Part shown: piece after piece, positions 2,687 to 31,045 of the stretch | How the letters are laid out: the number at the start of each line of letters is the position of its first letter | Position numbering within the stretch: position 1 is the first letter of the stretch | DNA from: Acaryochloris thomasi RCC1774 | GTDB taxonomy: Bacteria; Cyanobacteriota; Cyanobacteriia; Thermosynechococcales; Thermosynechococcaceae | NCBI RefSeq assembly: GCF_003231495.1 | Contig: NZ_PQWO01000009.1 | Location: 60,001 to 92,000 of the forward strand | DNA length: 32,000 nucleotides | Direction: 5' to 3' | Translations under genes and position numbers: made by a program | The notes under the pieces: generated by a model | The model's input: the letters and a program-made list of their open reading frames with translations, nothing else | Told to the model about the DNA's origin: nothing | Database searches by the model: none

Positions 2687-4090
2687 TTAACGTTGCGGAG
2701 TTCCTGAAGAGACAGGAGCCATGGGCGAGGAAACCCGACCGTTGTGTTCTTCTTGTTCAATGATTGAGTACTCGGGGTAGCCTCTCAAGCTGAAATCAGC
2801 TAGGTCTAAACCTGTAATTTCTTCCGCTTCAGGCACGCGCAGCATATTGAGTTTCTTGAGTACAAAGCTGACCCCATAGCCAGGAATGAAGCCCAGAAGG
2901 ATCGTACAGACTGCCGTCCCTATCAACTGTCCGACAAAGCCTGTCAGGGGAATGCCGTCGCCCTGAGGGTAGCCAGTCGCTATCACACCCACCGCCATCG
3001 CACCAAGCATGCCGCAGTAGCCGTGGACTGCAAAAGCACCTACGGCATCATCAATTCCAGCTTGCTCAATGGCTTTGCCTACAAAGGGCATGGTGTAGGC
3101 TCCGATGAAGGCAATGAGAATGACGAGCACGGGACTGTACAAGTCAAGACCCGCTCCCACCGAGATGATGCCAGCCAGCCCTCCTGAAATCGTAAAGAAC
3201 GGATCTGCTTTGGAGCTGATGTAGGCACCGACTATGCCAGAGGCGAGGGCAAGGGTCGTATTTACCCCAATGGAGGCCAGTGTCATCGGCGTATCGTAGA
3301 TGGTTGCTTCTACAGTCTGACCGGGTACAAAAATAACGCAGGCGGCCAAGAAGGCGTAGAAACCGACAAAAATCAGCATCAGACCCACCATCGTCAAGGG
3401 GAGATTGTGGGGCAGGATTGTTCTGGGTTTTCCCGTTGGGTCAAACTTACCAATCCGAGGACCAAGGTTGATTAATACTCCCAGTGCAAAAAAGCCAGAA
3501 ACCCCGTGAACAACGGCTGAACAGCCAAAGTCGTGATAGCCAAACTGGGTAAAAAACCAGCCGAAGGGACTCCAGCCCCAAGACGCAGCGACAACCCAGG
3601 TAAAGGAACCCAGCACAACGGCCAGGATCGCATAGGCTCCCACCTTTATTCTTTCGATGACTGCCCCGGACAGAATTGAGGCGGTGGTCATGGCAAAGAG
3701 GGCAAAAGCAAACCAGAAAACGCCGGTCAAATTATCGGAAACGTTCGGCCCTAAGGCCGGGGACCAAGGATAGGAGGCCTGAACCAGTGCCAGTACTTCG
3801 CCAACGGTGCCTTCCGCATTTGGATCCGTCCAGGGACCAACAATGCCGCCTGTCAGCGGGAAGAGGGGGAAGGCATTGTAGACCCACCAGCCAAAGAAGA
3901 AAAAGGTGAGGCCCACAATAGAAAGCGTCAGCAGATTTTTAGTCATCGTTGCCAGTACATTCTTAGCCCGAGAGGCTCCACCTTCGTAGGCTAGAAAGCC
4001 AACGTGAATGACTAGCATAAAGACGGATGCCCAATAGTAATAGGACTCCGAGACGAACGTTGCCAAAAACTCTTGCGATTCGGGGGTCAT
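2687..4090 (-). CDS. amt: Ammonium transporter (Amt/MEP family)
   Basis: 467 aa and multi-TM. Amt signatures are AVVHGVSGFFALGVLINLGPRIGKF and FAVHGYCGMLGAMAVG. SD AAGGAG lies 10 nt upstream of the ATG at 4090. Confidence 0.95.
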   Translation of the reverse strand: MTPESQEFLATFVSESYYYWASVFMLVIHVGFLAYEGGASRAKNVLATMTKNLLTLSIVGLTFFFFGWWVYNAFPLFPLTGGIVGPWTDPNAEGTVGEVLALVQASYPWSPALGPNVSDNLTGVFWFAFALFAMTTASILSGAVIERIKVGAYAILAVVLGSFTWVVAASWGWSPFGWFFTQFGYHDFGCSAVVHGVSGFFALGVLINLGPRIGKFDPTGKPRTILPHNLPLTMVGLMLIFVGFYAFLAACVIFVPGQTVEATIYDTPMTLASIGVNTTLALASGIVGAYISSKADPFFTISGGLAGIISVGAGLDLYSPVLVILIAFIGAYTMPFVGKAIEQAGIDDAVGAFAVHGYCGMLGAMAVGVIATGYPQGDGIPLTGFVGQLIGTAVCTILLGFIPGYGVSFVLKKLNMLRVPEAEEITGLDLADFSLRGYPEYSIIEQEEHNGRVSSPMAPVSSGTPQR

Positions 4091-4363: not shown

Positions 4364-4720
4364 TTATAGCTGTACCCGGCTGAGTTGGGACAGCCTTTCT
4401 TTGATACAGATGGGTTTCAGCCATTTTTATGTCCTAATCAATACGTGTATTGCTATAAAACCTGATTTTGAATAGTGGAATTAGCGGCAGCAGAAATGAT
4501 ATTTAGGAGGGAAGGGCTGGTGCTAATCGATGTAACTCTTTCTTGAGCAATAGCCATCGGATGCTTCCCAAAATAACGGAGAAGTTAGATGAACGAGGCT
4601 GTATGTAGCGCGTTGTAATGGGTGGTAAATTCTGGAATCTTCCTAAGTCTCTCCTTCTAAGAGGCTAAGGAAGATTACGCAGCCAACCCTGTATAAAAGG
4701 GCTCTATGTATAAAAAGGAT

Positions 4721-4999
4721 CTATACAACGGAGATAGAAGCGTTGCTCAAAGAATCTGTACAGTAATCAGATAGATGAGGACTTCTACAACTATCTTTTT
4801 GCCAAAGCACCGGGCAAAAGCTTTCGTCCATCTCGATATTGCCGACCCGTTTGTAGCGACCATAGATGTATTCAGTAAAAAAATCGGGGGGTAGAAAATT
4901 TTCAAGAATCAGAAATCCATCGGCTTTAGGTTGCTCAATCTGAGTTGGAGAAAGACGGATAGGCTGATAGGTCATCACGGTATCCTCTGTCTTCAGCAA
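4721..4999 (-). pseudogene. Short ORF resembling only the N-terminus of a PhyH-type Fe(II)/2-oxoglutarate dioxygenase; probable gene remnant
   Basis: The segment LSPTQIEQPKADGFLILENFLPPDFF resembles the L(T/S)xEQ...F..DGFL(V/I)(L/I)ENFL N-terminal motif of phytanoyl-CoA dioxygenase-like proteins. Those are normally about 250-280 aa; this ORF has 92 codons and then loses similarity. Confidence 0.3.
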
Positions 5000-6007: not shown

Positions 6008-6912
6008 AGAGGCTATTTATAAAGGAAAGCTGAAGTGAGGGTAGTTAGTTGTCTATTGATCATAGATTTCAAGTGTCGCGTTGTTTTGCACTCTATGTCT
6101 GATAAACCCTACGCCACTGACCTGACCGATGCAGAGTGGTCTATCTTGTCGCCTTTGATTCCTAAAGCTAAAACAGGCGGTCATCCCCGCACAGTAGATA
6201 TGCGCTCAGTTTGTAATGCGATCTACTACCAACTCAAAACAGGCTGTCAATGGCACCTACTTCCCCATGATTTTCCGCCCAGCTCAACAGTCTATTTCTA
6301 CCACCGCAGATGGCAGCGCCATGGCCACTGGGAACAGATGAACCATAGACTGCGTGAGCAACTACGCCAAAAGCTAGGCAGAGATGCCCATCCCAGCGCA
6401 CTTGCAACAGATAGTCAGTCGGTCAAAACGACTGAAAAAGGGAAGAGGTGTATGGCTTTGATGGCGGCAAGAAAGTCAAAGGCAGAAAGCGTCATGTCCT
6501 CGTCGATAGCTTAGATCTGCTGTTGAAGGTGGTGGTCACTGCGGCCAACACCAGTGAACGATTAGCTAGCGCCTATGCCCTGATGGAGTTATGGGATGAG
6601 TACCGAAAATGTCTCAATTACGTCAAGGTATTGTGGGTTGATGGCGGCTATAGCGGCGACAAGCTTGCATTGGCGGTATGGCTGATGATTCAAGCAAAGG
6701 TCGAAGTGATTCAACGCATGGGGCCAGAGTTTGAACTTTTACCTAAGCGGTGGGTCGTTGAACGCACCTTTGAGTGGCTCAACTGGTATCGGCGTTTGAG
6801 TAAGGATTACGAGCGCTTACCAGACATGAGTGAGGCGGCTATCTATGCGGTGATGACGAGAATCATGCTGAAACGATTAGCGGCCTAAAGATTCACTTTA
6901 TAAATGCCCTCT
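6008..6912 (+). mobile_element. IS5-family insertion sequence (IS427/IS1031-like size class, about 905 bp)
   Basis: Terminal inverted repeats are AGAGGCTATTTATAAAG (6008-6024) and CTTTATAAATGCCCTCT (6896-6912), matching at 15 of 17 positions. They enclose the two-frame transposase. If the IRs start at GAGG, the flanks are TTA and TGA. Both are TNA but they are not identical, so there is no clean target-site duplication. Confidence 0.85.
6095..6888 (+). CDS. IS5-family DDE transposase encoded in two overlapping frames joined by a -1 frameshift
   Basis: Frame A: MSDKPYATDLTDAEWSILSPLIP...SVKTTEK. Frame B opens after a TGA at 6433-6435 and reads ...REEVYGFDGGKKVKGRKRHVLVD...VDGGYSG...ERTFEWLNWYRRLSKDYE, giving the D, D and E/YREK-like motifs. 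The A-run slippery site gAAAAAg lies at 6434-6440. The likely start is the ATG at 6095 (MSDKPY) rather than 6035. Confidence 0.85.
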
Positions 6913-11554: not shown

Positions 11555-12562
11555 ATGACTCTGTTTCTCTCTATCCCTGAATATTTGAGCCAGTATCCTG
11601 ACGCAGCGGAATTGCAGCAAGCTATTCGGCAGCCGTGGAGTATTCCTCTCAACGATGCTACGGGACGTAGTTATGGCTACCGTCAGGATGTCAACCTGCG
11701 ACCAGGGTTATCCGTCTTAATTGATGACTATACGCTCCAGGACGATTTGATTGTCGAATTGAGCAGTAGTCAAGGTTATGAACCTGCTCGACTGGGATTA
11801 GAGATGAGCTTTCTCCTCTCGGGTCATAACCGAGCTGAAGGGGTTCAAGTCCACCATAATTTTCTCGATGTCAGTTGGGATAGTTCAGATGGTGGACAGT
11901 TTGACTGGCAAGCTGGAGAACGGATCTTGAAGCTTGATATTCATATCGAACCTTATCTATTCGAGACCCTTGTGGGTGAACAGCTTGAGGCGCTCCCCTG
12001 CACCTTCTGTGAGCTAATGCGAAATCCGCAGTTCAGTCATAAAAAATTCAGGCAGGTTGCTCCGACGACGGCCACCATGCAAACGGCTCTTCATCAAATT
12101 TTGCATTGTCCTTACCAAGGCTTAACCCGCTGGCTCTTTTGGGAAAGCAAAGTCTTAGAGCTGATCGCGTTACGGCTAGATCAGATGAGCCAATCAAGCG
12201 CTCCATTGATGACCCCCAATTGGTCTACAGACGATGTGGATCGTATCCATTACGCTAGCAGTATTTTACTTAAACACTTGGTTGATCCGCCTTCTCTTGA
12301 GCAACTAGCGCAGCTAGCAGGACTCAATGATCGCAAGCTCAAAGAAGGCTTTCGGCAGGTGTTCGGTACAACTGTTTTTGGCTACTTAACCCAGTATCGG
12401 ATGGAAAAAGCCTGCCAGCTTCTTAGGCAGCAACAATCAGTGGCGGCGGTCGCGATAGCCGTTGGCTATGCTAGCCCCACAGCCTTTAGTGGCACGTTCC
12501 GGCGACGGTTTGGGATGTCCCCCAAAGGGTACCAGGTGGCAAAACGTAGAAGATATTCGTAA
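11555..12562 (+). CDS. AraC/XylS-family transcriptional regulator, PchR-like by genomic context (module 1)
   Basis: C-terminal double HTH: PPSLEQLAQLAGLNDRKLKEGFRQVFGTTVFGYLTQYRMEKACQLL...VGYASPTAFSGTFRRRFGMSPKGY. Lies directly upstream of a TonB-dependent receptor gene. Confidence 0.9.
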   Translation: MTLFLSIPEYLSQYPDAAELQQAIRQPWSIPLNDATGRSYGYRQDVNLRPGLSVLIDDYTLQDDLIVELSSSQGYEPARLGLEMSFLLSGHNRAEGVQVHHNFLDVSWDSSDGGQFDWQAGERILKLDIHIEPYLFETLVGEQLEALPCTFCELMRNPQFSHKKFRQVAPTTATMQTALHQILHCPYQGLTRWLFWESKVLELIALRLDQMSQSSAPLMTPNWSTDDVDRIHYASSILLKHLVDPPSLEQLAQLAGLNDRKLKEGFRQVFGTTVFGYLTQYRMEKACQLLRQQQSVAAVAIAVGYASPTAFSGTFRRRFGMSPKGYQVAKRRRYS

Positions 12563-12605
12563 ATAGTCCGTTTTAAAGAGAAAAATAGTCCGCTTCAAAG
12601 AGAAA
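12562..12605 (+). promoter_or_regulatory. Tandem 22-bp direct repeat (AATAGTCCGTTTTAAAGAGAAA / AATAGTCCGCTTCAAAGAGAAA); candidate AraC operator of receptor gene 1
   Basis: Read directly: 20 of 22 positions are identical and the two copies are exactly adjacent. The repeat starts within the araC stop codon and lies 88-131 nt upstream of the receptor ATG. The core GTCCG(T/C)TT-N5-AGAAA recurs at 29344-29382. Confidence 0.5.
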
Positions 12606-12634
12606 CACACGCTCCACGCCCCATAGAATTTAAT

Positions 12635-12655
12635 TGCAAATAATTCTTGTTTGCA
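12635..12655. promoter_or_regulatory. AT-rich inverted repeat TGCAAA-N9-TTTGCA; weak Fur-box-like candidate proximal to receptor gene 1
   Basis: Sequence TGCAAATAATTCTTGTTTGCA followed by TATTATC, 38-58 nt upstream of the ATG at 12693. Similarity to the Fur consensus is only partial. Confidence 0.3.
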
Positions 12656-12692
12656 TATTATCGGTGGATCTGATGGTTGAGTGGTGTGGGAA

Positions 12693-15299
12693 ATGATGGT
12701 TACCAAAACGGTACGACTTGGGCTGTTAGCGATAGGTTGGCTAGGGATGACACCTGTGGCTTGGGCCGAGCAGTCTAATGCAGAAAATTTAGGAAAGACC
12801 AAGCATTTAGCTAATCAGCCTGTAGAAGGACTTGTTGCTGCAGATCAGACCATTAAGACGGGAAAAAGCCTTTCTCAGCAACCCCCAGCTTCTACAGTCA
12901 AAGATTGGATAGCTCAAATTAAAGCATCACAAGTGCAAATTATCAGCGTCAATCTAGAACAAACTGAAGCCGGTTTACAGATGACGCTGGATACAACTGA
13001 CGGGACTTTAGAAACTCCAGCAACAACGGTATCGGAGAACACTCTAGTTGCTGAAATTCCGAATGCAGTTTTATCACTGCCGGAGGAAGAGACGTTTGAG
13101 CAAGTTAACCCAGTGCTGGGGATTGCTCTAGTGAGCGTGACGAGTTTACCGAATGATCAGGTGCGGGTGGCGATTACGGGCACAGACGCTCCGCCTACGG
13201 CTGAAATTACAGCCTCTGCATCGGGTTTAGCCTTTGCCGTTTTGCCAGGAACCGTCAGTACTGAAGGCACTGAAGAAGAGGAGCTTGAGATTACCGTTAC
13301 GGCAGAGCAGAGCGGATCTGAATATTTTGTGCCTGAAGCAGGTGTCACCCGCACTGATACTCCTATTCTCGATACCCCTGCCAGTGTGTTTGTGGTTCCG
13401 CGTCAGGTGTTTGAAGACCAGGGAATCACCAAGTTTTCTGATGCACTGAGAACGACACCCGGTGTATCACAAACGTCAGCGCCTAACGCTAACTTTAACA
13501 ATGTGAATATTCGAGGCTTTGATGTCTCTTCTCCCAGTTTGAGAAATGGCGTCCCTGAAGCCTTTTCGTTCTCTCTGCCCAGAGACTTGAGTAATGTAGA
13601 GCGACTGGAAGTTCTCTCTGGCCCTGCATCTATTGTTGGTGGTCAAATTTCTCCCGGTGGCATCATCAATATCGTCACGAAACAGCCTCTTTCATCCCCT
13701 TTCTATGAGCTATCGGCCAGCTATGGCAGTTTCAATACCTTTGACGGAGGGGTAGATCTTTCCGGTCCTCTCAACAGCGATCAGACATTGAGCTACCGTT
13801 TCAATGCTTCGTACCTGCATTCAGATACACGTGTTGATGTAGATAATGTTGATGTTGATCGTATCTCAATCGCACCTGTACTGAGATGGGATATCAGCGA
13901 CCAAACAAAGCTAACCTTTGAAGGACTGTACCTCAACTCAAAAACTCCTCAGCGAACTGGGTTACCTGCTGTTGGTACTGTTTTAGATAACCCCAACGGC
14001 GAAGTCCCGAGAGATCAGTTTGTGGGAGAACCTGATTTTGACGGTAATGATCGACAAATTATTCAAGTTGGCTATAACTTAGAGCATCAATTGAGCGATA
14101 ACTGGAAGCTGCACCATACATTTCGCTACAATAATTTTCAAATTGAGCAAAGAGAAGCCTTTGCCGATGCGCTACAGGATGACTTGCGAACGTTAGAGCG
14201 ATCTGTATTTTTCGGTCAAGATAATTTTAATAATTTTCAAGCAACTGCCTATATAACAGGTCAGTTTGAGACAGGACCTTTTACCCACAAGCTATCAACG
14301 GGTATTGATTATAGCTTTGAAGAAGACTTTTTTAATTTTACCTTTGGCTCTGTTGATGCTGGAAACATTGACATTTTTGAGCCAGTATTTACCGGTATTG
14401 AGGGGCCGATTCCTGTTGCTGAAATTCAAGGTAGAGATACAAATAGAGGGATAGGACTTTATCTTCAAGATCAGCTAAGCTTATTGGATGATCGCCTCAT
14501 CTTTGTGCTAGGTGGGCGAATTGATTTTATACGTTCTTCCACTGAGAGTTTTAGTGACGGCACCCCGGAAGAATCTCAAAGTGATACAGCTTTTAGCCCC
14601 AGAGTCGGAATTCTTTTCAAGCCCATTGAAAATGTTTCTCTATACGGCAGCTTTAGCCGCTCCTTTCAACAAGTCACGGGCATTAGTGCGACTGGCGAAC
14701 TATTTTCACCCTCTCGCGGAACTCAATACGAAGTTGGTGTCAAAGCGGACTGGCTCGATAAAAGACTCTCGACCACACTTGCTTTTTTCGACATCACTCA
14801 ATCGAATGTTCTGACAACCGATCCTAATAATCCTGCCTTTGAAATTCAAACAGGAGAGCAGCACAGTCGTGGAGTTGAGCTATCGGCCCAGGGAGAAATT
14901 CTACCCAATTGGAACGTGATTGCGTCCTATGCCTACACAGATGCAAAAGTGACGGAAGACAATAATATTCCCGTGGGCAATCGCTTTGCAAATGTGCCGG
15001 AGCACTCTGCTAGCCTATGGACGACTTACACCATACCTAGCGGTAGCTTGGCAGGATTGGGTTTTGGTCTAGGGCTATTCTATGTCGGAGAGCGGCAGGG
15101 AGATTTAGAGAATTCTTTTCAAATACCGAGCTATTTCAGAACCGATGCAGCTATTTACTATAAACGCGATAGATTCAAAATTGGGTTGAATGTGAAAAAT
15201 CTGTTTGACATTGACTATATAGAATCTAGTGACGACATTCTCAGAGTTAACGTCGCTGACCCCCTTACTGTCCAATTGTCAGTTTCTTATGAGTTTTAG
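12693..15299 (+). CDS. TonB-dependent siderophore receptor with an N-terminal AMIN-like extension (module 1)
   Basis: Signal peptide MMVTKTVRLGLLAIGWLGMTPVAWA, so ATG 12693 is preferred over the track's GTG 12681. An extension of about 120 aa is followed by the TonB-box-like ELEITVTAE and plug motifs TDTPILDTPASVFVVPRQV and RGF. A long beta-barrel ends ...LSVSYEF with a terminal Phe. Confidence 0.9.
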   Translation: MMVTKTVRLGLLAIGWLGMTPVAWAEQSNAENLGKTKHLANQPVEGLVAADQTIKTGKSLSQQPPASTVKDWIAQIKASQVQIISVNLEQTEAGLQMTLDTTDGTLETPATTVSENTLVAEIPNAVLSLPEEETFEQVNPVLGIALVSVTSLPNDQVRVAITGTDAPPTAEITASASGLAFAVLPGTVSTEGTEEEELEITVTAEQSGSEYFVPEAGVTRTDTPILDTPASVFVVPRQVFEDQGITKFSDALRTTPGVSQTSAPNANFNNVNIRGFDVSSPSLRNGVPEAFSFSLPRDLSNVERLEVLSGPASIVGGQISPGGIINIVTKQPLSSPFYELSASYGSFNTFDGGVDLSGPLNSDQTLSYRFNASYLHSDTRVDVDNVDVDRISIAPVLRWDISDQTKLTFEGLYLNSKTPQRTGLPAVGTVLDNPNGEVPRDQFVGEPDFDGNDRQIIQVGYNLEHQLSDNWKLHHTFRYNNFQIEQREAFADALQDDLRTLERSVFFGQDNFNNFQATAYITGQFETGPFTHKLSTGIDYSFEEDFFNFTFGSVDAGNIDIFEPVFTGIEGPIPVAEIQGRDTNRGIGLYLQDQLSLLDDRLIFVLGGRIDFIRSSTESFSDGTPEESQSDTAFSPRVGILFKPIENVSLYGSFSRSFQQVTGISATGELFSPSRGTQYEVGVKADWLDKRLSTTLAFFDITQSNVLTTDPNNPAFEIQTGEQHSRGVELSAQGEILPNWNVIASYAYTDAKVTEDNNIPVGNRFANVPEHSASLWTTYTIPSGSLAGLGFGLGLFYVGERQGDLENSFQIPSYFRTDAAIYYKRDRFKIGLNVKNLFDIDYIESSDDILRVNVADPLTVQLSVSYEF

Positions 15300-15368: not shown

Positions 15369-16445
15369 GTGAAAAAAATACAGTTAAAGAAAACAGTACT
15401 CTATGGAAAATCTACGATTAATTGGATTTCAATCCATTGCAATCGCAGTTTCCGAATGTTTCTCTTATTCGCAATGACCGCCTTGATCATCGCTTGTAAT
15501 CACGCCTCAAATCCGGCTGTCACTTCCCCCACTGATTGTCGAACGATTCAACATGCAATGGGAGAAAGCTGTGTTCCTACTACCCCCCAGCGCTTAGTGG
15601 CCCTGAGTTCGCCCACAATGGCAGATGCGATCGCACTAGGCGTACGGCCGATTGGTACAGTTTTACAAGACTTTGATTTTCAAAAAGCTCCGCCCTATCT
15701 AGAAGGACGACTACAGGGCATTGAAATTGTAGGCAAAGAAGAGCAGCCTGACCTAGAAAAAATTCTATCGCTTAAACCCGATCTTATTATTGGCCTGCAA
15801 TATGACTCTGAGCCAGTCTATGACAAACTCTCACAAATTTCTCCAACCGTTTTAGATGATTGGAAGGGCTACCCTTCTTGGAAAGAACACTTTGATTTTG
15901 TGGCTCAAGCTTTAGGTAAAACCGAAGCAGCCCAACAAATATGGTCGCAGTACGATCAACGTATTCAAGAGTTGAGAACAGCCCTTGGTCCAGCTTACTC
16001 GGATCTTGAAATCTCATTTGTGAGGGTCTGCTGCGGCAATTGGGCCACGGATGTCAAAAACTCTTTTAGCGGCATGATTCTTGAAGATGTCGGCCTAAGT
16101 CGTCCCCCTGCTCAGGATATTGAAGTTGAAAATGGACTTGTTTTTCTCTCTGAAGAGGCCCTCACTCAGTTTGATGGCGACATTATTTTTCTGGTTGTCG
16201 ATGCAGATCAAGATTCTGCAGATGCCTTAGAGCAGCTTAAGCAGAAACCCCTTTGGCACAAACTGAAAGCTGTACAGCAAGGGAAAGTCTATCCCGTCAA
16301 TCTTGCAACATGGCGGGGCGGAAATCCCTTAGCTGCTGATGCCGTAATCGATGACCTTTTCAAATATTTGGTAAAAGTTCCAGATTCACAAGGCTCGAAG
16401 TCAGATCACAAAAATACGATGGCCGAGAATGCTCCTACTCGATAA
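15369..16445 (+). CDS. FhuD-like (type-2 periplasmic binding protein) iron-siderophore ABC substrate-binding lipoprotein (module 1)
   Basis: Hydrophobic leader with lipobox MFLLFAMTALIIAC. Family pattern RLVALS...LGV.PIG...KPDLIIG...LWHKLKAVQQGKVYPV. The start is uncertain: GTG 15369 or ATG 15456. Confidence 0.85.
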   Translation: MKKIQLKKTVLYGKSTINWISIHCNRSFRMFLLFAMTALIIACNHASNPAVTSPTDCRTIQHAMGESCVPTTPQRLVALSSPTMADAIALGVRPIGTVLQDFDFQKAPPYLEGRLQGIEIVGKEEQPDLEKILSLKPDLIIGLQYDSEPVYDKLSQISPTVLDDWKGYPSWKEHFDFVAQALGKTEAAQQIWSQYDQRIQELRTALGPAYSDLEISFVRVCCGNWATDVKNSFSGMILEDVGLSRPPAQDIEVENGLVFLSEEALTQFDGDIIFLVVDADQDSADALEQLKQKPLWHKLKAVQQGKVYPVNLATWRGGNPLAADAVIDDLFKYLVKVPDSQGSKSDHKNTMAENAPTR

Positions 16446-16447
16446 AT

Positions 16448-17293
16448 CTACCGCTCCTCCAGCCAGCTCTGTAAATCTGCCAAACTCGTGAAATCTAGCA
16501 GTGCCTCACTCAAATCTTCAAGTTCAGGCAAAGAAAGAGAGGCAAGGTGCGATCGCATTTCTTCCGGCAGCATTTGTCCTAGGCGATAAGTCAACTGGCG
16601 CATCACCACAGATAAAATCCCCTCCTCTTTTCCCTCTGCCTTGGCCTCTCGAATAGCACGAGGTTCCTCTGTTAAATCTAGACCTAACATTGCCTTGACC
16701 TCCGCTCGACTCGCGTTCTTTAGTTTGTACACCATAATTGAAGTCACTATGTCTATTATGTCTCGTCTTTTCTCCAAAGTGAATCCCGCCTGCTCAGTAC
16801 GTGCGATCAGATCCCTCGCAGCTTCAGGCGCTTCATTCTCTTTCACAATCGTCAACACCATTGCCCCTACAGCAATCGGAAGAGAGTCGATCTCTCCCGC
16901 CTCATTCAGATATACGCGATGAACCTGGTTGCCATTGAGCAGCGATCGATGGGGATGAAGCTTACTCTGTTCAGCCGCGCGAGAAGGATAAATGATCACC
17001 GCCTGCCAATCTGAAAAACGAGCGCTGTTGCGGTAAAAGTACAGCGCCGATTCACTAAACAATCGCTCGTAGAGTTCTTCATCCTTTTGCATCTGGACTT
17101 CGCAGAAGAAAACGACACCTGGTTCATCTCCCTCTGGCGGCAGGAACACCCCGTCAATTTCGAACTTGGGTTCCTTGACGGCAACTGAATCGAATCGATA
17201 GCCAGCCGCATTATTCGGTCTTTCCCCCAGCAGATCGAACAGCAGCTCGGGCGATTGCTGAAACAGCTTGTAGAACAGAGGGTCACGCCGCAT
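16448..17293 (-). CDS. Rpn-family recombination-promoting nuclease / putative transposase-like protein (DUF2887-type N-domain plus DUF4351-type C-domain)
   Basis: The N-terminus MRRDPLFYKLFQQSPELLFDLLGERPNNAAGYRFDSVAVKEPKFEIDGVFLPP...VVFFCEVQMQKD matches my memory of the cyanobacterial DUF2887/Rpn-like pattern, with a D...E.Q nuclease-like core. The C-terminal helical half is paralogous to 29512-29952. Its stop is only 2 nt from the convergent stop of the binding-protein gene. Confidence 0.75.
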   Translation of the reverse strand: MRRDPLFYKLFQQSPELLFDLLGERPNNAAGYRFDSVAVKEPKFEIDGVFLPPEGDEPGVVFFCEVQMQKDEELYERLFSESALYFYRNSARFSDWQAVIIYPSRAAEQSKLHPHRSLLNGNQVHRVYLNEAGEIDSLPIAVGAMVLTIVKENEAPEAARDLIARTEQAGFTLEKRRDIIDIVTSIMVYKLKNASRAEVKAMLGLDLTEEPRAIREAKAEGKEEGILSVVMRQLTYRLGQMLPEEMRSHLASLSLPELEDLSEALLDFTSLADLQSWLEER

Positions 17294-18769: not shown

Positions 18770-19687
18770 CTATCTCACTCCCTGTACATTAGTCTCTGCA
18801 AAAGATTGAGGATAGATAAGGGGCAGAAGCCGCTCTAACATTAACCCGATCAAACGAGTGCCGTTGCCCCAGTGCCAAAATGGCTCAATTTCATAGACCT
18901 GTTGAGTCTGCACAGCCTTAAGCTGCCTCCAGGTCGGATGCTGATGAAGCTGCTCAGAGAGCGGTTTATTTTTAGGACTAAAAGATTGCACAAAAATAAT
19001 ATCAGGATCAACCGTCAAAATTCGCTGCAGCGAGAGGTAGATCAGTCCAACTTCTCTGCGCTCAGGCTTTGGCTTTGACCAAGGGAAATTTGTAAATTGC
19101 TGCAGAACACTACCGACCGTCCCCGTATCCGTTTCTACGGGATAGCAGTTCAACCTGCGATTGATGGTTGCACCGCCCATGACTATTACAGTCGGTTGAG
19201 ATTGGTGCTGTAGCAGCCGTTGCATATCTCGAATCTGTTGGGTGAGGGTTGCGATCGCATCCTTCCCCTGTCTCTCTCGCCCCGTCCAACGACCGACCCG
19301 CTGCAGTCTAGCGACAGCGGCATCATAACCCGCTCCTTCCACCAGCAAGAGCGGCGCAATACGGTTGAGTTGCTTATAAAAACGGTGGGGGAAATGCCAG
19401 CCTAAAATCAAATCGGGATGGCTTTGGCGAATAGCTTTCCAGTTTGGAAAAATCCACGATCCGGCGTTCATGAATGATCGAGCGCGATCGCCGTAAAACT
19501 CCGGTCGGTCAGCGACGCCCTGATTAAGATAGCCCACTGGCTCTAGCCCCAGTTCAACCAAGCAATCAAGCCCGGTTGCCGTCAGGCAAACAATCCGTTG
19601 AGCAGGCTGATCTAACCGAATTTCAGCACTAAGGTCATTACTTTCCTGAATTGGAGTCGCTTTAAACGCACTCTTTCCCTTTGTCAT
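18770..19687 (-). CDS. FhuD/BtuF-like type-2 binding-protein fold without any signal peptide (predicted cytoplasmic)
   Basis: Family pattern RIVCLTATGLDCLVELGLEPVGY...HPDLILGW...DPDIIFV...WRQLKAVQTQQVYEI. The preferred start is ATG 19687, which overlaps the stop of the upstream methyltransferase frame as ATGA. Neither this start nor the longer track ORF (to 19783) encodes a hydrophobic leader. Confidence 0.75.
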   Translation of the reverse strand: MTKGKSAFKATPIQESNDLSAEIRLDQPAQRIVCLTATGLDCLVELGLEPVGYLNQGVADRPEFYGDRARSFMNAGSWIFPNWKAIRQSHPDLILGWHFPHRFYKQLNRIAPLLLVEGAGYDAAVARLQRVGRWTGRERQGKDAIATLTQQIRDMQRLLQHQSQPTVIVMGGATINRRLNCYPVETDTGTVGSVLQQFTNFPWSKPKPERREVGLIYLSLQRILTVDPDIIFVQSFSPKNKPLSEQLHQHPTWRQLKAVQTQQVYEIEPFWHWGNGTRLIGLMLERLLPLIYPQSFAETNVQGVR

Positions 19688-24170: not shown

Positions 24171-25454
24171 TTAGCCATGGTCAGGCAAGGTTGTCTCTAC
24201 TGTTCTCAGCCGCCTCACACTGTACCCACCGATCGCAATCAACATTCCGCAGATGGCAAAGATCGAAATCTGTAGTGCCATACCTGCGCCTAATCCAGTG
24301 CCGAAGATTGGTCCAAAGAGTTGGGCTAACGGTCCTCCTGGCTGCATGGCGGGTTCAAAAAATTGGTCGGCGAGGGGACCTGCGATCGCAAACCCTACAG
24401 GACTACTCAACTGTGTCAGCAAAAATCGCGTGGCAAACACCCGTCCCTGCACCTCTGGCTCCACCTTAGACATCCAAATCGCTTGGTTGGCGCTTTCTGG
24501 GAACGGAGAACAGAAGCCTGAAAATAAAGCCGTACCAATCTTCGTTGCATTTCGCTGAGCCAAAGCCAGAATCACAATACCTAGTTTCCATAGGGCGCTA
24601 GCAATCAAGACACTATGAATCCGACGTTTGGCACCACCCCAGATACTCATGGTTACCCCGCCCAAGAGACCACCCATCCCAAAAAAAGCCAGCAGCGTTC
24701 CCCAAACGACAGGATTGTTGTCACTTCGAGCTAAAACCATCGCAGGCAGAATGGCAAAAGTAGCGCTATCAATAAAACTATTGAGGATCAAAAAGCTGAG
24801 AAGGGCCATCAGACTGGGCCGTCGCCAGAGATATTTCAGTCCAAAAGTCAGCGATGTTCTAAATGAGTTTTTTTCCTTTGCTAGGGGGATTGCTTGAGAC
24901 TGGGGAATGCTAACCAGTGCTAAGCTGCATATTGCGATCGCAAAGGTAGAAATATCAATGCAGAGAATACCCGTCAGACCTGTTGCTGCATAGATGGCTC
25001 CTGCCAAAGCTGGGGCCAAAATATAGGTGCCTGACATTTGAACAGAGCCGAGAGCTGTAGCGCGAGCGTAGTGCTGTTTAGGGACAATCAGCGTCAGAGA
25101 GGCAGCGTAAGCCAGTCCTTGGATATAGCCAAATAAGCCGTTAATCGCGCCGGTTATGTAGAGGTGCCACACCTGCAGATTCTGGGTTAAAAACAGGAGC
25201 AGTAGAGCGATCGTAGAGAGTCCGGCGATCAGGTCGCCCAGCAGCATTAGATACTTGCGCGGGTAGCGATCGACCCAGATGCCTGCAAAGGGTGAAACCA
25301 GCAGTCTGGGGACTTGGGTAAACACCAGAATTAGAGAGAGAGGCGTGGCTTGTCCAGTGATTTCCCAAGCCCAAAGCGTGATGGCAAAGTTGGTTAGCTC
25401 GGAGCCAAGTAGGGAGGCAAATTGACCGAGCCAGATAATTAGAAAAGTTCGCAA
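24171..25454 (-). CDS. MFS transporter (EntS/MFS_3-like), paralogue of 17422-18738 (module 2)
   Basis: 427 aa. IWLGQFASLLGSELTNFAITLWAWEITGQATPLSLI...WVDRYPRKYLMLLGD. TTG start at a position equivalent to the GTG start of the paralogue, and no in-frame ATG upstream before the stop. Confidence 0.85.
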   Translation of the reverse strand: MRTFLIIWLGQFASLLGSELTNFAITLWAWEITGQATPLSLILVFTQVPRLLVSPFAGIWVDRYPRKYLMLLGDLIAGLSTIALLLLFLTQNLQVWHLYITGAINGLFGYIQGLAYAASLTLIVPKQHYARATALGSVQMSGTYILAPALAGAIYAATGLTGILCIDISTFAIAICSLALVSIPQSQAIPLAKEKNSFRTSLTFGLKYLWRRPSLMALLSFLILNSFIDSATFAILPAMVLARSDNNPVVWGTLLAFFGMGGLLGGVTMSIWGGAKRRIHSVLIASALWKLGIVILALAQRNATKIGTALFSGFCSPFPESANQAIWMSKVEPEVQGRVFATRFLLTQLSSPVGFAIAGPLADQFFEPAMQPGGPLAQLFGPIFGTGLGAGMALQISIFAICGMLIAIGGYSVRRLRTVETTLPDHG

Positions 25455-25601
25455 TAGTTTGGCTCCTGATCCGATGCTTTTGCATGCACTTAAGACAAGA
25501 TGCTCAACTAGCTTAAATGCAGAGACGGGGGTTTCCTTAGAGATTTTGAATCTAAAACGTATTTTTTTGCGCCCGAAACGCAGTTTTTGGATATCCGTTC
25601 T

Positions 25602-26672
25602 CTACAGAGGGGATAGCATTTGTTGTTTCAGTTCTTCTAAATAAAGTTCGGTGCCGATGGGGCCGGGTAAGCCTAAACAAAGGTAAGCGGGGATGAAGTA
25701 GACGCGTCCGGTTTTGCTGGCTTTGAGAGATTGTGCGATCGCATTTTTCTGCCACATCTGCTTCAAATCTGTGATTTGGCTAGCTTCAAATTCTGTTGTA
25801 CTGCCGGTTGCTTTAGGCGGACTGAAGTTGCTGCCCAACAAAACCATAGAGTCAGCCTCATCCAACTGCGTCAACCCTTCCAGAGAGATCTGCACTCGTG
25901 CATCTTCTTTTTTGTTGTCAAATTCTGGTGGGGAGATTAATTGAAAGCCCAGCTTGCTAACTAGGGAACGACAAAGACCGTGACCAGAATTACCTAAATT
26001 TATTTCTCTAAGATCAGAGGAACTGAGCAAGAGCAGTTTAGGGTGGGTTGCCACTAAAGAGGCAAAACGCTCACGGGCTGTTGTCACACGCCGTTCTGTC
26101 TCCGTTAAAAGTTGTTCTGCTTGCTCAGAACGATCAACGGCTTCAGCAATGGTCTGCAAACTCTCTTCCGTCTCTGACCACTCGAGCAGCACCGTTGGGG
26201 CGACTTTCGATAAAGTCTCATACTGGTCAGTATTACCATCAACCGTGCCTAAAATAAGATCTGGCTTCGCTTTGAGCAAGGCTTCAATAGAGGGCGTGTA
26301 AGCCTGTCCCACATTCATGAGGGGCTGAGTAATGTAGCGTCCTAAGTAGGGAATTTGCTGCTCGGGATTGTCATAGGCTCCCTGATGCACCGTGATGTGG
26401 TCAGCGAAACCGATAGGCTGCACCTTGAGAGCTAATAGAGGTTCTAAGACATAGGGCCCCAGCACTACGATTCGTTGAGGCTGTCCGCATATTTTAGTTT
26501 CGCCTAATTCATGCTGGACGACACGGCAATCTGCAGATGATGCAGCATTGCGGGGGGTATCCTGCTCTGGGGTAGGTTGGCAGGCTGAGATTGAATGTCC
26601 CAGCAAAACCACAAAGATGAGCCATTTCGTTACTGCCAAAACTTTCACAGACCATTCCTTTCTGAGGGACAA
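25602..26672 (-). CDS. FhuD-like iron-siderophore ABC substrate-binding lipoprotein (module 2)
   Basis: Leader MSLRKEWSVKVLAVTKWLIFVVLLGHSISAC with a lipobox. Pattern RIVVLGPYVLEPLLALKVQPIGF...KPDLILG...TGRVYFIP. The start lies 6 nt after the receptor stop. Confidence 0.85.
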   Translation of the reverse strand: MSLRKEWSVKVLAVTKWLIFVVLLGHSISACQPTPEQDTPRNAASSADCRVVQHELGETKICGQPQRIVVLGPYVLEPLLALKVQPIGFADHITVHQGAYDNPEQQIPYLGRYITQPLMNVGQAYTPSIEALLKAKPDLILGTVDGNTDQYETLSKVAPTVLLEWSETEESLQTIAEAVDRSEQAEQLLTETERRVTTARERFASLVATHPKLLLLSSSDLREINLGNSGHGLCRSLVSKLGFQLISPPEFDNKKEDARVQISLEGLTQLDEADSMVLLGSNFSPPKATGSTTEFEASQITDLKQMWQKNAIAQSLKASKTGRVYFIPAYLCLGLPGPIGTELYLEELKQQMLSPL

Positions 26673-26678
26673 CTCACT

Positions 26679-29240
26679 TTAAAAATTGACTGTGACTGAA
26701 CCAATGACCGTAAACGGTTCACCGACTTCTGAACCAAATGTACGACTGTTGTTGCTGCCGACAATGTAATCAACGTCAAAAATGTTTTTAAAGTTGAGGG
26801 CCAGTCGCCAGTTATCACGGCGATAAAACATCGCTGCATTGGCTAGGAAGTAGCTGTCTAGCTCGAAACTATTGGCGAGGTCACCTTCTCGTTCTCCTAA
26901 AAAGTTGAATCCAAGCCCAAACCCTAAGCCCTGTAGATCGCCCGATTGAATCTCATAGGTGCTCCACACACTGCCGCTGTGCTCAGGGATATTGACGAGG
27001 CGATTGCCTTCAGGAATCGTATTATCTGCAGAGACTTCTGCGTCAGTGTAGGCGTAGGAGGCGATCACGTTCCAGCCCGGTAGAATCTCACCTGTAACAT
27101 CAAGCTCGACACCTCGACTGTTTTGGGCACCCGTGGCAACGGATGAAAAGGGATCGAGGGGATCGGGGGTCGCCACATTTCTGCGGCTGATGTCGAAATA
27201 ACTCAAGGTGGCAAAGAGCCGTTCATTCAAAAGAGCCGCCTTTACACCCACCTCAAACCCTTCGCCCCGCTCTGGAGGGAGTAGCTCACCGCTGCTGGTG
27301 GTCTCCGTGTTGGGCGTGAAGGACTGGGAATAGCTGGCAAATAAGGACAGAAATTCGAGGGGCTGGTAAACGATGCCAAAACGCGGGGTCACAGCATCAT
27401 CATTTTGGTCCGCTTCAGAGCCAACGGGATCAGAAGCAGTCGGCCCATTCGTGATGTTCTGATCGACGGTGTCATAACGAACACCAGCGACCAAGATTAG
27501 GTTGTCCAATACCTTGATTTGATCCTGGAGAAAAAGGCCTAAGCGATTGGTTTGTACCTTTTCATTGAAGGAAATCGGTAGGCTGCCACTATCAATCGGT
27601 GCGAGACCAAAGACCGGGTTGAAAATGTCTAAGAAAGAGGGTGAGGCGAAGTCAAAGCGAGAAAGATTTTGCTCATCGGTTCGATTCAAATCAACTCCCA
27701 CCAATAGCTTATGGTCAATGGGACCAGTGGCAAACGCTCCGACCACGCTGGTTTGGAGAGAAAAATTGGTTGCGTCGATGTCTGCGCTTCCAGGGAACCG
27801 CATGACGAGACCTGTGGCTTCATCGAACGCGAGAGGCAGCACGGCCGTATTCAATAGATCTCGTCTTGAATATTCAAAAGCATTCCGTATCTCCCACCGA
27901 TCGTTAAACTGATGCTCAAAACTATAGCCCACCCGAAACAGGGTGCTGTTTACGAAGTTTTCGGGTTCAACAATGATGCTGCTAAAGGGAACATCGGCTA
28001 CGCCATTGCCGATGGCCGGCAAGCCAATATCAAAGGGTTGTGAATCAGTCGCATACTCAGCTTTTAGGGTGAGATTGGTGCGATCGCTAATTCGCCAGGA
28101 TAAGACAGGGGCAACGAGGAAGCGTTCAATGTCTACATCAGAGTCTATGAAGTCACTGTCGCGAGAGTAAGACACGTTGAGCCGATACAGTAAATCTTTT
28201 TTTGGGGTCAAGGGGCCGGTTAGATCGATTTGAGGCTGCACGAAGCCTCGGTTGCCCAACTCCAGACCGATCTCATAGGCCGGTTGATCCAGCGGCTGCT
28301 CCGTGACGATATTGATGATGCCTCCTGGCTGTAGCTCTCCATACAAAATGGAGGCCGGTCCCTTAAGCACTTCAACTCGTTCTACATTCCCAAGGGCTGG
28401 GTTGGCCCCTGTGAAGCCGCCAAATTCTCTGAATCCATCTCGCAGAGTGGGAGCATCAAACCCCCGAACGTTGAAGTCTATGCTGACCCCGCCAAAGGTA
28501 TCCCCAAAAGTGACACCACTCACGTTCCTGAGCGCTTCATCAATACGGGTGACCTGCTGATCTTCTAAGACCTGCTTCGGCACGACTTGAATGGATGTCG
28601 GTGTATCCAAAATAGGCGTATCGGTGCGCGTTGTAGGACTTACCTCCGGGACCGCGTAGCCCTCTGGGCCTCTCTCTGCAGTCACCGTGAGTTCTAATTC
28701 TTCCTCTTCTGAAGCAACTGGTGAAACTGCATCCACCGCAAACACCAATCCCGATATTTCACTCTGAATCGTGACTGTTGGGGGGCCTTCTATCCCCACA
28801 ATCTCAACCTGTACCTGATCTCCTGACAGAGGTATGACGCTAACCTGAGAGATACCTTCGACGGGATTATCTTGCTGATATTCTGGACCGCCCGGCAAAG
28901 CCAGCACTGCGTTGGGAATAATGGCCGTAAGTCGGTTCCCCTCAGTTGTAGCGGCGGGAATCGCTAGGTCATCCGCTGTAGTTTCTAGAACAATTGAGAG
29001 CCCCTGCTCCGTCGGGTTAATCTGTATGCCCGTCACCTGAATTTGCGTTGCTTCGATCTGGGCCAGCCATTCAGTGACGCTAGCGGCGGGCTGACGGTCT
29101 TCCGGCTCCAAAATTTCTAAAAGTTCAGCCAATTCGTCAGTTGTCGCAGGCTTCTCGGTGGCCAAAACCGATTGGGTTGCTCCCAAACCTGCCAGCGCGA
29201 TTGCCCACAGCGGCAAAAACTTGCCAAACCTTTGTTTCAT
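26679..29240 (-). CDS. TonB-dependent siderophore receptor with an N-terminal AMIN-like extension (module 2)
   Basis: Signal peptide MKQRFGKFLPLWAIALAGLGATQSVLA, an extension of about 120 aa, the TonB-box-like ELELTVTAE, the plug motif TDTPILDTPTSIQVVPKQV, and a barrel ending ...GSVTVNF. Confidence 0.9.
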   Translation of the reverse strand: MKQRFGKFLPLWAIALAGLGATQSVLATEKPATTDELAELLEILEPEDRQPAASVTEWLAQIEATQIQVTGIQINPTEQGLSIVLETTADDLAIPAATTEGNRLTAIIPNAVLALPGGPEYQQDNPVEGISQVSVIPLSGDQVQVEIVGIEGPPTVTIQSEISGLVFAVDAVSPVASEEEELELTVTAERGPEGYAVPEVSPTTRTDTPILDTPTSIQVVPKQVLEDQQVTRIDEALRNVSGVTFGDTFGGVSIDFNVRGFDAPTLRDGFREFGGFTGANPALGNVERVEVLKGPASILYGELQPGGIINIVTEQPLDQPAYEIGLELGNRGFVQPQIDLTGPLTPKKDLLYRLNVSYSRDSDFIDSDVDIERFLVAPVLSWRISDRTNLTLKAEYATDSQPFDIGLPAIGNGVADVPFSSIIVEPENFVNSTLFRVGYSFEHQFNDRWEIRNAFEYSRRDLLNTAVLPLAFDEATGLVMRFPGSADIDATNFSLQTSVVGAFATGPIDHKLLVGVDLNRTDEQNLSRFDFASPSFLDIFNPVFGLAPIDSGSLPISFNEKVQTNRLGLFLQDQIKVLDNLILVAGVRYDTVDQNITNGPTASDPVGSEADQNDDAVTPRFGIVYQPLEFLSLFASYSQSFTPNTETTSSGELLPPERGEGFEVGVKAALLNERLFATLSYFDISRRNVATPDPLDPFSSVATGAQNSRGVELDVTGEILPGWNVIASYAYTDAEVSADNTIPEGNRLVNIPEHSGSVWSTYEIQSGDLQGLGFGLGFNFLGEREGDLANSFELDSYFLANAAMFYRRDNWRLALNFKNIFDVDYIVGSNNSRTFGSEVGEPFTVIGSVTVNF

Positions 29241-29284
29241 TGCGTCTCACCCACACCACTTACAGCAGCTAGATTAAAACCTAG

Positions 29285-29302: not shown

Positions 29303-29343
29303 ACTTGGTCAGTGAGAGCATCGTAGCGGGTGGTTGAGAGCAA

Positions 29344-29382
29344 AATCTTTGCGAAACCGACTTTTTTCTTCGCGAAACGGAC
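29344..29382 (-). promoter_or_regulatory. Tandem direct repeat on the minus strand (GTCCGTTTCGCGAAGAAA and GTCGGTTTCGCAAAGATT, 21-bp period); candidate AraC operator of receptor gene 2
   Basis: The plus-strand copies TCTTTGCGAAACCGAC (29346-29361) and TCTTCGCGAAACGGAC (29367-29382) are 14 of 16 identical. The repeat shares the core GTCCGTTT-N5-AGAAA with 12562-12605. It lies 104-142 nt upstream of the receptor ATG. Confidence 0.5.
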
Positions 29383-29511
29383 AAAGCGTTGCGACAGTCG
29401 AAGACCGACCTATATCTTTCTGACAGGCTAAGTCCTTCGGACGATCTAAAGGTACGCCAACGGCCATCGCATCAGGTCATTGGGCAACCTTGTATAAAAC
29501 TTGTACCTGGT

Positions 29512-30031: not shown

Positions 30032-31045
30032 CTAGGCTCGCTGACCCAGTTGATATGCCTTTGGGCTAACCGCAAACTGTCGTCGGAAGGCAGTGCTAAA
30101 CGCTTCTGGGCTTCGATAGCCTACTGTGGCCGCAACCTTGGCAATAGTGAGTTCAGAGTTGTGCAGTAGTGATTGGGCCTGCTGCATTCGATGCTGTTGC
30201 AGATAGCCAAACACCGTGGTGCCAAACAGTTGCCGGAAACCCTGATTGAGCTTGCGATCGTTGAGACCCACCTGACGAGCCAGATCGATCAAAGTGGGGG
30301 GCTGTTTTGCTCGCTGGATCAAGATCTCCTTTGCCTGATGGAGCTGTTCAACATCCTGACTACACAAAAACATCGGAGTTGCATAAGGTTGTTCGTCTTG
30401 CCAGACGGAAAATTGGGTAGTGAGTAATTCCAACGCCTTACTTTCTAAGTAGAGCTGCTGCATTAACCCTGTATAGGGACAGTGTAGGATTTGCCGAATC
30501 TGTTGCTGTATAGATCGAGAGATTTGTCCCAGTGATTGATGAAATCGCTGAGTTCTGTCCCCCTCTAGTAGATGTTGTAAGGGTGCGGGCAGTCCTTTTA
30601 TTCCCAGGTTGAAGGTACCAAAGTAGCTTGGATCTACGACAATCATGAGCACATGGATGGACTGATCGGCGGGCCATTCTTCAATTTCTGTGTGGCTGGG
30701 GAGATGATAGAGGTAGTGGCAGTCCGAGACTTCCCGATAGTCACGACTGATATCTAGGGCATCCGGCGTTTGCACTCGAGATGTCCCTGACAAATAGAAC
30801 TTAGCGACCAACGGGAAATTAGATTCATGTTCGATAACGTGGCGAATCGTCTGCCTGAGTCTACCCTGACGGATATATATTTCAAGTCCCTGACGGAGCT
30901 GGAGGATGCGATCTCCGCCTTGCCCTAGCTGTTCCGGCAAATTGTGCTGAAAACCAGAATCTATGGGCTGATGAACTTGTTCACCCCGATGCTTGGCTTG
31001 TTCATACAAATCCTGAAAATCGGCATTGGTCAGCGTGATCGCCAT
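30032..31045 (-). CDS. AraC/XylS-family transcriptional regulator, PchR-like by context (module 2)
   Basis: C-terminal double HTH PPTLIDLARQVGLNDRKLNQGFRQLFGTTVFGYLQQHRMQQAQSLL...VGYRSPEAFSTAFRRQFAVSPKAY. Shares QILHCPY.GL and ESK.LEL with the module-1 regulator. Confidence 0.9.
   Translation of the reverse strand: MAITLTNADFQDLYEQAKHRGEQVHQPIDSGFQHNLPEQLGQGGDRILQLRQGLEIYIRQGRLRQTIRHVIEHESNFPLVAKFYLSGTSRVQTPDALDISRDYREVSDCHYLYHLPSHTEIEEWPADQSIHVLMIVVDPSYFGTFNLGIKGLPAPLQHLLEGDRTQRFHQSLGQISRSIQQQIRQILHCPYTGLMQQLYLESKALELLTTQFSVWQDEQPYATPMFLCSQDVEQLHQAKEILIQRAKQPPTLIDLARQVGLNDRKLNQGFRQLFGTTVFGYLQQHRMQQAQSLLHNSELTIAKVAATVGYRSPEAFSTAFRRQFAVSPKAYQLGQRA

Follow-up and report, generated by a model that had tools for sequence, protein, structure and literature searches.

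What is the role of a 22-bp tandem repeat that begins inside the stop codon of a gene for an AraC-family regulator and precedes a gene for a TonB-dependent siderophore receptor? In the 32,000-nucleotide stretch of DNA that was analyzed as a whole (the window), direct reading gives two abutting 22-bp copies, AATAGTCCGTTTTAAAGAGAAA (12562-12583) and then AATAGTCCGCTTCAAAGAGAAA (12584-12605), which are identical at 20 of 22 positions; the two mismatches, at unit positions 10 and 13, are both T>C. Tandem Repeats Finder returned the same element (12561-12605, period 22, 2.0 copies, 91% matches, score 76). The TAA of the regulator open reading frame (11555-12562) occupies positions 12560-12562, and the exact adjacency, the degree of identity and the start within the stop codon, all part of the original prediction, are confirmed. 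The element ends 88 bp 5' of the receptor gene. A search with a degenerate 22-mer (up to 3 mismatches) found just the two repeat copies in the window, compared to a mean of 0.00 in 100 shuffles. Judged from sequence, the repeat is very probably an operator, on which a dimer of the adjacent PchR/IutR-like regulator would occupy two tandem half-sites and activate the receptor promoter, with Fur adding repression by iron. The original prediction also held that no annotated feature type explains such a structure; this was overstated, because the predicted element, a transcription factor operator, is such a type. The features on which our reading is built are listed in Table 1.

Table 1. Features of the two cassettes and of the candidate third operator in the 32-kb window
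Feature	Position	Strand	Description
AraC-family regulator gene 1	11555..12562	+	cupin-like sensor domain (predicted), long helix, two HTH motifs
Distal half-site	12561..12582	+	A-tract (overlaps TAA stop 12560-12562), G at -1, TCCG 12567-12570, tail TTTTAAAGAGAA
Promoter-proximal half-site	12583..12604	+	A-tract, G at -1, TCCG 12589-12592, tail CTTCAAAGAGAA
-10-like hexamer TAGAAT	12624..12629	+	35 bp from T of proximal core; assigned by consensus and position
Fur-box-like element TTGCAAATAATTCTTGTTTGCATATTAT	12634..12661	+	AT-rich, partly palindromic; just downstream of -10
Conserved GGTGTGGG motif	12683..12690	+	directly 5' of receptor 1 start codon
TonB-dependent siderophore receptor gene 1	12693..15299	+	AMIN, plug and barrel; TIGR01783
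Periplasmic siderophore-binding protein gene 1	15369..16445	+	Peripla_BP_2, FecB-like; third gene of cassette 1
Candidate operator 3 (lower confidence)	25546..25589	-	21-bp direct repeat, A-tracts, variant cores CTGCG / ATACG
Periplasmic binding protein gene 2	25602..26672	-	
TonB-dependent receptor gene 2	26679..29240	-	
-10-like hexamer TACGAT	29320..29325	-	35 bp from proximal core of operator 2
Operator 2	29346..29388	-	two direct half-sites, period 21, TTTGTCCGTTTCGCGAAGAAA / AAAAGTCGGTTTCGCAAAGAT, 5' of receptor 2
Paralogous AraC-family regulator gene 2	30032..31045	-	34% identity to regulator 1

The gene content of the window is that of an iron uptake island. Over its whole length it encodes two FecCD permeases, an ABC ATPase, ferritin-like proteins, three binding proteins, and two MFS transporters. 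Receptor 1 resembles FhuA and FoxA and matches TIGR01783 with 433 bits, above the cut-off for siderophore receptors, and its translation likely starts at the in-frame ATG at 12693 and not at the listed GTG at 12681. Regulator 1 is 100% identical to a protein of Acaryochloris thomasi RCC1774 named "Regulatory protein PchR," a name that comes from the source annotation. The protein has Pfam matches to HTH_18 and HTH_AraC, with recognition helices at approximately residues 259 to 270 and 308 to 319. The DNA-binding domain of the regulator has sequence matches in the PDB; the N-terminal sensor domain is without a sequence match in Pfam or the PDB, orthology to PchR is not established, and no family-level NCBIfam assignment was obtained for the regulators, the matches at the level of the DNA-binding domain all lying under the cut-offs. 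An AlphaFold model of the regulator (mean pLDDT of 88) gave further information on both parts. The fold of the N-terminal part matches ToxT, Rns, CsvR, and the dimerization domain of AraC, and the C-terminal part matches the DNA-binding domains of AraC, AdpA, and MarA with TM scores of 0.72 to 0.87 (0.84 to 0.87 against the AraC DNA-binding domain and the AdpA-DNA complex). The model thus suggests a cupin-like N-terminal domain, placed by fold comparison alone, followed by an AraC-type DNA-binding domain with two HTH motifs. The residues that are coupled to operator bases (see below) are found in this model at the starts of helices 259-270 and 308-319.

A position directly past a stop codon is the usual place of a terminator, and the repeat could be imagined to act at the level of RNA, either as a terminator or attenuator of the regulator transcript or as a structured 5' leader of the receptor mRNA. 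Such a role is hardly credible. No terminator-like site was detected between the regulator stop codon at 12562 and the receptor start at 12693, which agrees with the earlier claim that no terminator separates the regulator gene from the repeat; the predicted fold of the repeat region is less stable than that of shuffled sequence (MFE of -2.4 kcal/mol, z = +2.8), and the copies are direct and not inverted. Furthermore, at loci with inserted DNA the element goes with the receptor promoter and not with the 3' end of the regulator gene. An intrinsic terminator proper, that is, a GC-rich hairpin with a U-tract, was rejected as the identity of the repeat on two of these counts, the absence of a site within 12562-12693 and the z score. 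Transcription may continue from the regulator gene into the receptor gene, which would be compatible with both the absent terminator and the unstable RNA fold.

The operator reading is extended by the second cassette of the window. Upstream of receptor 2, GTCCGTTTCGCGAAGA is followed after 21 bp by GTCGGTTTCGCAAAGA, and the pattern GTCSGYTTY-N4-AGA has exactly four half-sites in the 32 kb, two in each cassette. Here, a DUF2887/DUF4351 gene fragment lies between regulator 2 and operator 2; it splits the regulator gene from the repeat, and therefore, the repeat belongs to the receptor promoter and not to the 3' end of the regulator gene. No pair of TCCG cores spaced by 21 or 22 bp was found in the window upstream of either regulator gene (upstream of 11555 or 31045). 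The candidate third operator has a TAAGCT at +46 (25515-25510) and is located 5' of a gene encoding an MFS transporter (25454..24171).

Is the repeat a mere accident? It has two copies only, its AT-rich sequence is rather low in complexity, and short two-copy repeats are frequently accidental; a chance or slippage duplication in the 3' untranslated region or intergenic spacer would be without function. The comparison across cyanobacteria makes this very improbable. Scanning with a regulator alignment and taking one genome per species, we assembled the best 80 cyanobacterial loci, whose regulators share 35 to 65% protein identity, a divergence that excludes recent copies of one element, and searched 360 bp around and past the regulator stop codon. 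Conservation in orthologous promoters, by which the original prediction could be judged, was indeed found: two TCCG cores at 21 or 22 bp occurred downstream of the regulator gene in 43 of 79 regions from these loci, compared to 0/77 regions upstream of the regulator gene, 0/79 inside it, 0/72 at 1.5 kb downstream, and 1/79 shuffles. The best 18-nucleotide direct repeat reached at least 14/18 matches in 44/79 regions, nearly always with a period of 21 or 22; among the controls it did so in 10/77 regions upstream of the gene, 2/79 inside it, 2/72 located 1.5 kb farther downstream, and 1/79 shuffles; the four period-21 repeats among the regions upstream of regulator genes were without TCCG pairs. 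Over 48 loci, the period was 22 in 31 cases, 21 in 15, and 23 and 20 in one case each. This restriction to 21 or 22 bp bears out the period of about two helical turns that had been proposed and, like the set distance to a -10 hexamer described below, speaks against chance. The same holds for the covariation of the repeat with the recognition helices of the regulator and for a footprint alignment of five loci from different genera, in which the invariant columns cluster in the half-sites, the TA of the -10 hexamer, and the AT-rich box.

The repeat reappeared at most of the loci that had been missed under the strict criteria if the search was stretched to the receptor gene or if one mismatch per core was allowed. 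A receptor homolog was present within 1.5 kb downstream of the regulator gene in 69 of the best 80 loci. Metagenome contigs were also searched by the DNA pattern alone. Of four unique hits, two were loci with regulator, repeat, receptor, and binding protein, one was a likely chance match in a coding sequence, and one was located at a contig end; the reverse search agrees with the operator reading in a sample of this small size.

The anatomy of the half-site was derived from 32 nonredundant loci, with positions counted from the T of TCCG. Positions -7 to -2 form an A-tract, positions 0 to +3 (TCCG) are essentially invariant, and position +6 is T in 89%. Position -1 carries 0.03 bit across loci, and yet both copies of each locus agree in 100% compared to 28% expected. 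Positions +9 to +13 behave in a similar manner, with almost no information across loci and an agreement within loci of 69 to 91% compared to approximately 30% expected. Variability across loci combined with agreement within a locus means that the half-site consists of a core common to the family and a part that is specific to the locus and equal in both copies. Duplication or gene conversion could account for part of the likeness between the two copies of a locus.

If the adjacent regulator reads the locus-specific part, its residues should change together with it. We calculated the mutual information for each pair of a column of the full-length regulator alignment (43 sequences, <85% identity) and a variable operator position. 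K261 and R260 ranked highest in the entire protein and were coupled to position -1; behind them came Y305, P308, T309, A310, and S312, which were coupled to positions +9 to +13, and the two recognition helices account for 13 of the 20 top columns. By this covariation, and not by structure, the half-site is bipartite, with the base coupled to HTH1 (-1) and those coupled to HTH2 (+9 to +13) about one turn apart. The pairing of residues and base at -1 was nearly strict: Arg-Lys occurred with G (14/14), x-Thr with T (16/16), and Tyr-Lys with A (10/10); regulators with Cys-Lys or His-Lys had A or C at this position. Across the regulator alignment, no other residue or column predicted base -1 with two errors or fewer. 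On a neighbor-joining tree from which the recognition helices had been left out, G/non-G and Arg/non-Arg changed six times each and T and Thr261 five times each, in both cases with 0 mismatching tips. A switch is seen even in the clade of regulator 1, where regulator 1 and the regulator of locus L006 have Arg and GTCCG and their relative at L001 has Tyr and ATCCG. Covariation statistics of this kind are inflated by shared ancestry; the number of co-switches and the specificity of the columns speak against ancestry as the full explanation. In an alignment to MarA, R260/K261 correspond to W42/H43 and P308/T309/S312 to Q91/Q92/T95, which we take to be base-contacting positions in the MarA-DNA structure 1BL0.

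It is somewhat favored by these data that the circuit uses a modular code, in which two neighboring residues that open recognition helix 1 determine the base 5' of TCCG and helix 2 determines the tail, so that many paralogous cassettes may coexist in a single genome with limited cross talk. According to the text of a study on Synechocystis sp. PCC 6803, IutR1 bound several promoters of TonB-dependent transporters (TBDTs), and specificity may therefore be looser than the covariation implies (PMC11221513).

How would such an operator act on the promoter? At 17 of 33 loci, a TANNNT hexamer is located at +35/36 from the proximal core, and at 17 of 33 it is located at +45 to +47, with a few loci belonging to both classes; the two classes are one helical turn apart, and the hexamer is nearly absent between them. 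No -35 hexamer above random level was found upstream of these -10 hexamers (best match, 2.67/6 compared to 2.45/6 random), as is typical of activator-dependent promoters, and at loci of the +35 class, a -35 element would coincide with the tail of the proximal half-site. The original prediction of a direct-repeat site for a dimeric AraC-family activator of the downstream receptor gene had gained support from the flanking genes, the conservation, and the period; the -10 phasing in the absence of a -35 hexamer, the recognition helix covariation, and the promoter binding that the text of the Synechocystis study describes for homologous IutR proteins (PMC11221513) argue for it as well. A consensus scan gave a different promoter at 12634-12661, a sigma-70-like TTGCAA-16-TATTAT, the sole such call in the region. 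If this were the real promoter, the repeat would be located farther upstream, in a class I-like geometry, and its nature would be unchanged.

The AT-rich element downstream of the -10 hexamer points to a second regulator. Matches of at least 10/14 to the Fur 7-1-7 consensus were found at 26/47 loci compared to 6/47 and 3/47 in controls, and hence the type of receptor targeted here, a TonB-dependent siderophore receptor with Fur-like boxes enriched nearby, is predicted to be under Fur control. The box of cassette 1 has 9/14 matches to the classical 7-1-7 consensus and is named Fur-like only because this fit is weak. A Fur box as the identity of the repeat itself (palindromic, AT-rich, about 19 to 23 bp) was ruled out, the repeat being direct and having a TCCG core.

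With Fur-like boxes nearby, and with iron uptake promoters usually answering to several regulators, it is conceivable that the repeat serves another factor (Fur, another iron regulator, or a nonadjacent AraC paralog) or that the adjacent regulator represses or roadblocks the promoter. Cross-binding of promoters by IutR paralogs, described in the text of the Synechocystis study (PMC11221513), and the altered geometry that the alternative promoter at 12634-12661 would bring are in line with such readings, and the Pseudomonas PchR is both activator and repressor, to go by the title of Heinrichs and Poole (1996). We consider this unlikely. Its direct orientation and GC-containing core set the repeat apart from Fur boxes, and the sole columns that predict the variable base are those of the recognition helix of the adjacent regulator. 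Activation rather than repression is favored by the missing -35 hexamer and by the failure of iutR mutants to induce TBDT genes, as reported in the text of that study (PMC11221513).

The operator reading places the repeat in a well-known kind of element, the AraC/XylS-type tandem operator within a siderophore circuit that combines Fur and an activator. In araI1-araI2 and in the XylS-dependent Pm promoter (TGCA-N6-GGNTA), bipartite half-sites of the same orientation are spaced by about 21 bp. Each half-site consists of two boxes about one turn apart, one for each HTH motif of a monomer, and the proximal half-site lies next to or reaches into the -35 region of an activator-dependent promoter. 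The cyanobacterial element has in common with these systems the direct, bipartite half-sites about two turns apart and a regulator with a cupin-like sensor or dimerization domain and a double HTH. It differs in its motif (A-tract, N, TCCG, N2, T, and a variable tail), in a period that is more often 22 than 21, in the conserved A-tract before each core, and in the effector, which is presumably a ferri-siderophore.

A one-component AraC-type regulator encoded beside a TonB-dependent receptor is also shared with the PchR, YbtA, AlcR, and RhrA type of system. In Pseudomonas aeruginosa, activation by PchR with the imported ferri-siderophore is combined with repression by Fur (PMC10281387), and the concept of a regulatory cascade has been described (PMC1698941). 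PchR, however, controls its own gene, whereas none of the 77 regions upstream of regulator genes had the TCCG repeat. Also close are the regulators IutR1 to IutR3 of Synechocystis sp. PCC 6803 (Sll1205, Sll1408, and Slr1489), which, as described in the text of that study, bind to TBDT promoters in electrophoretic mobility shift, yeast one-hybrid, and ChIP-seq experiments with whole promoter fragments; the induction of TBDT genes under low iron is lost in the iutR mutants (PMC11221513). There, IutR is presented as a global regulator, and three HOMER motifs are given in figure form (Fig. 5D of PMC11221513). The cassette of regulator, TBDT, and FecB-like binding protein is common to both organisms and has been described for Synechocystis together with its Fur boxes, the Fur motif being palindromic and AT-rich (PMC8634477). 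The text of the IutR paper makes no mention of a tandem 21/22-bp half-site architecture, a fixed -10 phasing, or a residue-to-base rule (PMC11221513). In the literature searched, we found no prior account of the cyanobacterial motif, the phasing, or the residue-to-base rule; the motifs in the IutR figure might overlap with ours.

Four observations made in silico underlie the following model, namely the repeat and its conservation, the phasing with the -10 hexamer, and the protein-DNA covariation; binding, activation over repression, the transcription start, and the effector are what we infer. A dimer of the regulator would place one DNA-binding domain on each 21- to 22-bp half-site. HTH1 would read the A-tract, the discriminating base, and TCCG, and HTH2, roughly one helical turn farther downstream, the locus-specific tail. 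The missing -35 element would then be replaced by the proximal half-site, and the bound regulator may recruit RNA polymerase in a class II-like activation. Fur would repress through the AT-rich Fur-like box just past the -10 hexamer, at the putative transcription start. By analogy with PchR, the cupin-like domain may bind the imported ferri-siderophore (PMC10281387), and the receptor would thus be induced only under low iron in the presence of its own siderophore. Basal expression of the receptor may come from transcripts that read through from the regulator gene.

Cyanobacteria have many cassettes of regulator, receptor, and binding protein with which they scavenge the siderophores of other organisms, and the specific switching of these receptors is poorly understood. 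Binding in the Synechocystis IutR study was to whole fragments, and the architecture of the sites is not defined in its text (PMC11221513). The operator model (A-tract, N, TCCG, and tail, present twice at 21 to 22 bp and phased with the -10 hexamer), together with the residue rule, allows regulons to be predicted in cyanobacterial genomes. It also allows paralogous regulators to be matched to their promoters and lends itself to swap experiments and to the design of siderophore-responsive reporters or biosensors. If the code is true, regulons and cognate pairs would be predictable from the sequence and specificity could be reengineered. The general view of AraC-family regulation is unchanged by this.

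The overlap of the repeat with the stop codon is a matter of compaction and not a requirement. It is dispensable, because the repeat of cassette 2 is located approximately 650 bp past its regulator gene and yet just 5' of the receptor gene. In compact cassettes, the operator often doubles as the last codons of the regulator (..K-N-S-x-stop).

The operator upstream of the TonB-dependent receptor genes (two tandem half-sites, each an A-tract followed by a TCCG core) extends into the regulator gene at many loci. Of 48 loci, 21 have the distal half-site within the last codons of the regulator gene (L007, L009-L013, L015, L016, L019, L021, L022, L029, L031, L040, L041, L048, L049, L056, L068, L070, and L072), and there AAA-AAT-TCC-GNN-TAG is both operator and C-terminal peptide, ..K-N-S-(A/V/G)-stop. 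In a further 12 of the 48, including operator 1 of the window, the A-tract begins with the regulator stop codon. As read from the sequence, operator DNA at the regulator 3' ends serves two uses, and the cassettes are extremely compact.

The receptor leaders carry a second element, a GGTGTG(R)G-like motif located 3 to 15 nt 5' of the receptor start codon. Among the cyanobacterial loci found through the regulator protein (L001-L080), it was present in 32/47 receptor leaders versus 2/46 and 0/47 control regions. The role of this putative element might be that of an extended ribosome-binding site; alternatively, post-transcriptional control might act on it. The listed start of the receptor 1 open reading frame (ORF) is GTG at 12681, and an in-frame ATG ATG at 12693-12698 is preceded by the conserved GGTGTGGG motif and is the start of a sequence resembling a signal peptide. 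Judged by sequence context, translation of receptor 1 more likely starts at this ATG than at the GTG.

Features of the window outside the two operators
Feature	Position	Strand	Remarks
GGTGTG(R)G-like motif, two copies	12683-12690; 29257..29250 (-)		receptor gene 5' leaders
Operator-like direct repeat, period 21 bp	25546-25589	-	A-tracts, variant cores AAAAACTGCGTTTCGGGCGCAA / AAAAAATACGTTTTAGATTCAA
IS4/IS5-type transposase, two overlapping ORFs	6035-6888	+	DUF4096, then DDE domain
Tandem repeat, 17-bp unit TGTATAAAAAGGATCTA	4690-4724		2.1 copies, 88% matches
DUF2887/DUF4351 gene	16448-17293	-	full-length
DUF2887/DUF4351, second copy	29512-29952	-	C-terminal fragment, inserted between regulator 2 and operator 2
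Uma2-family gene	31158-31868
Leucine carboxyl methyltransferase-like ORF	19684-20577	-	inside iron cluster

The operator-like direct repeat, the third such site in the window, has an MFS gene (25454..24171, minus strand) downstream, with TAAGCT at +46 (offset from the proximal core) and then an AT-rich box. This arrangement suggests that the MFS_3-type (EntS-like) transporter may share operator-type control from a putative site; our confidence in the repeat as an operator is lower because the relaxed operator scan gives 0.24 matches per shuffled window. Near-perfect 21-bp direct repeats were also seen upstream of receptor genes at two other loci, namely, AGCCAGTCTGGGGCAAAA twice at about +823 past the regulator stop in L032 and AGCAGATCAGGAGCGCCAACGA twice at about +724 in L037. 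Their cores differ from the TCCG core of the operator, and they may be operator variants with an altered core.

The transposase ORFs lie at the edge of the iron island; together they may represent an insertion sequence that is either frameshifted or subject to programmed frameshifting. The 17-bp tandem repeat, the second tandem repeat of the window, sits in the long spacer between two divergent genes, one for an ammonium transporter (4090..2687) and one for a solute-binding protein. The methyltransferase-like ORF is reminiscent of Sll1407, a methyltransferase noted in the ferric-uptake cluster of Synechocystis (PMC8634477).
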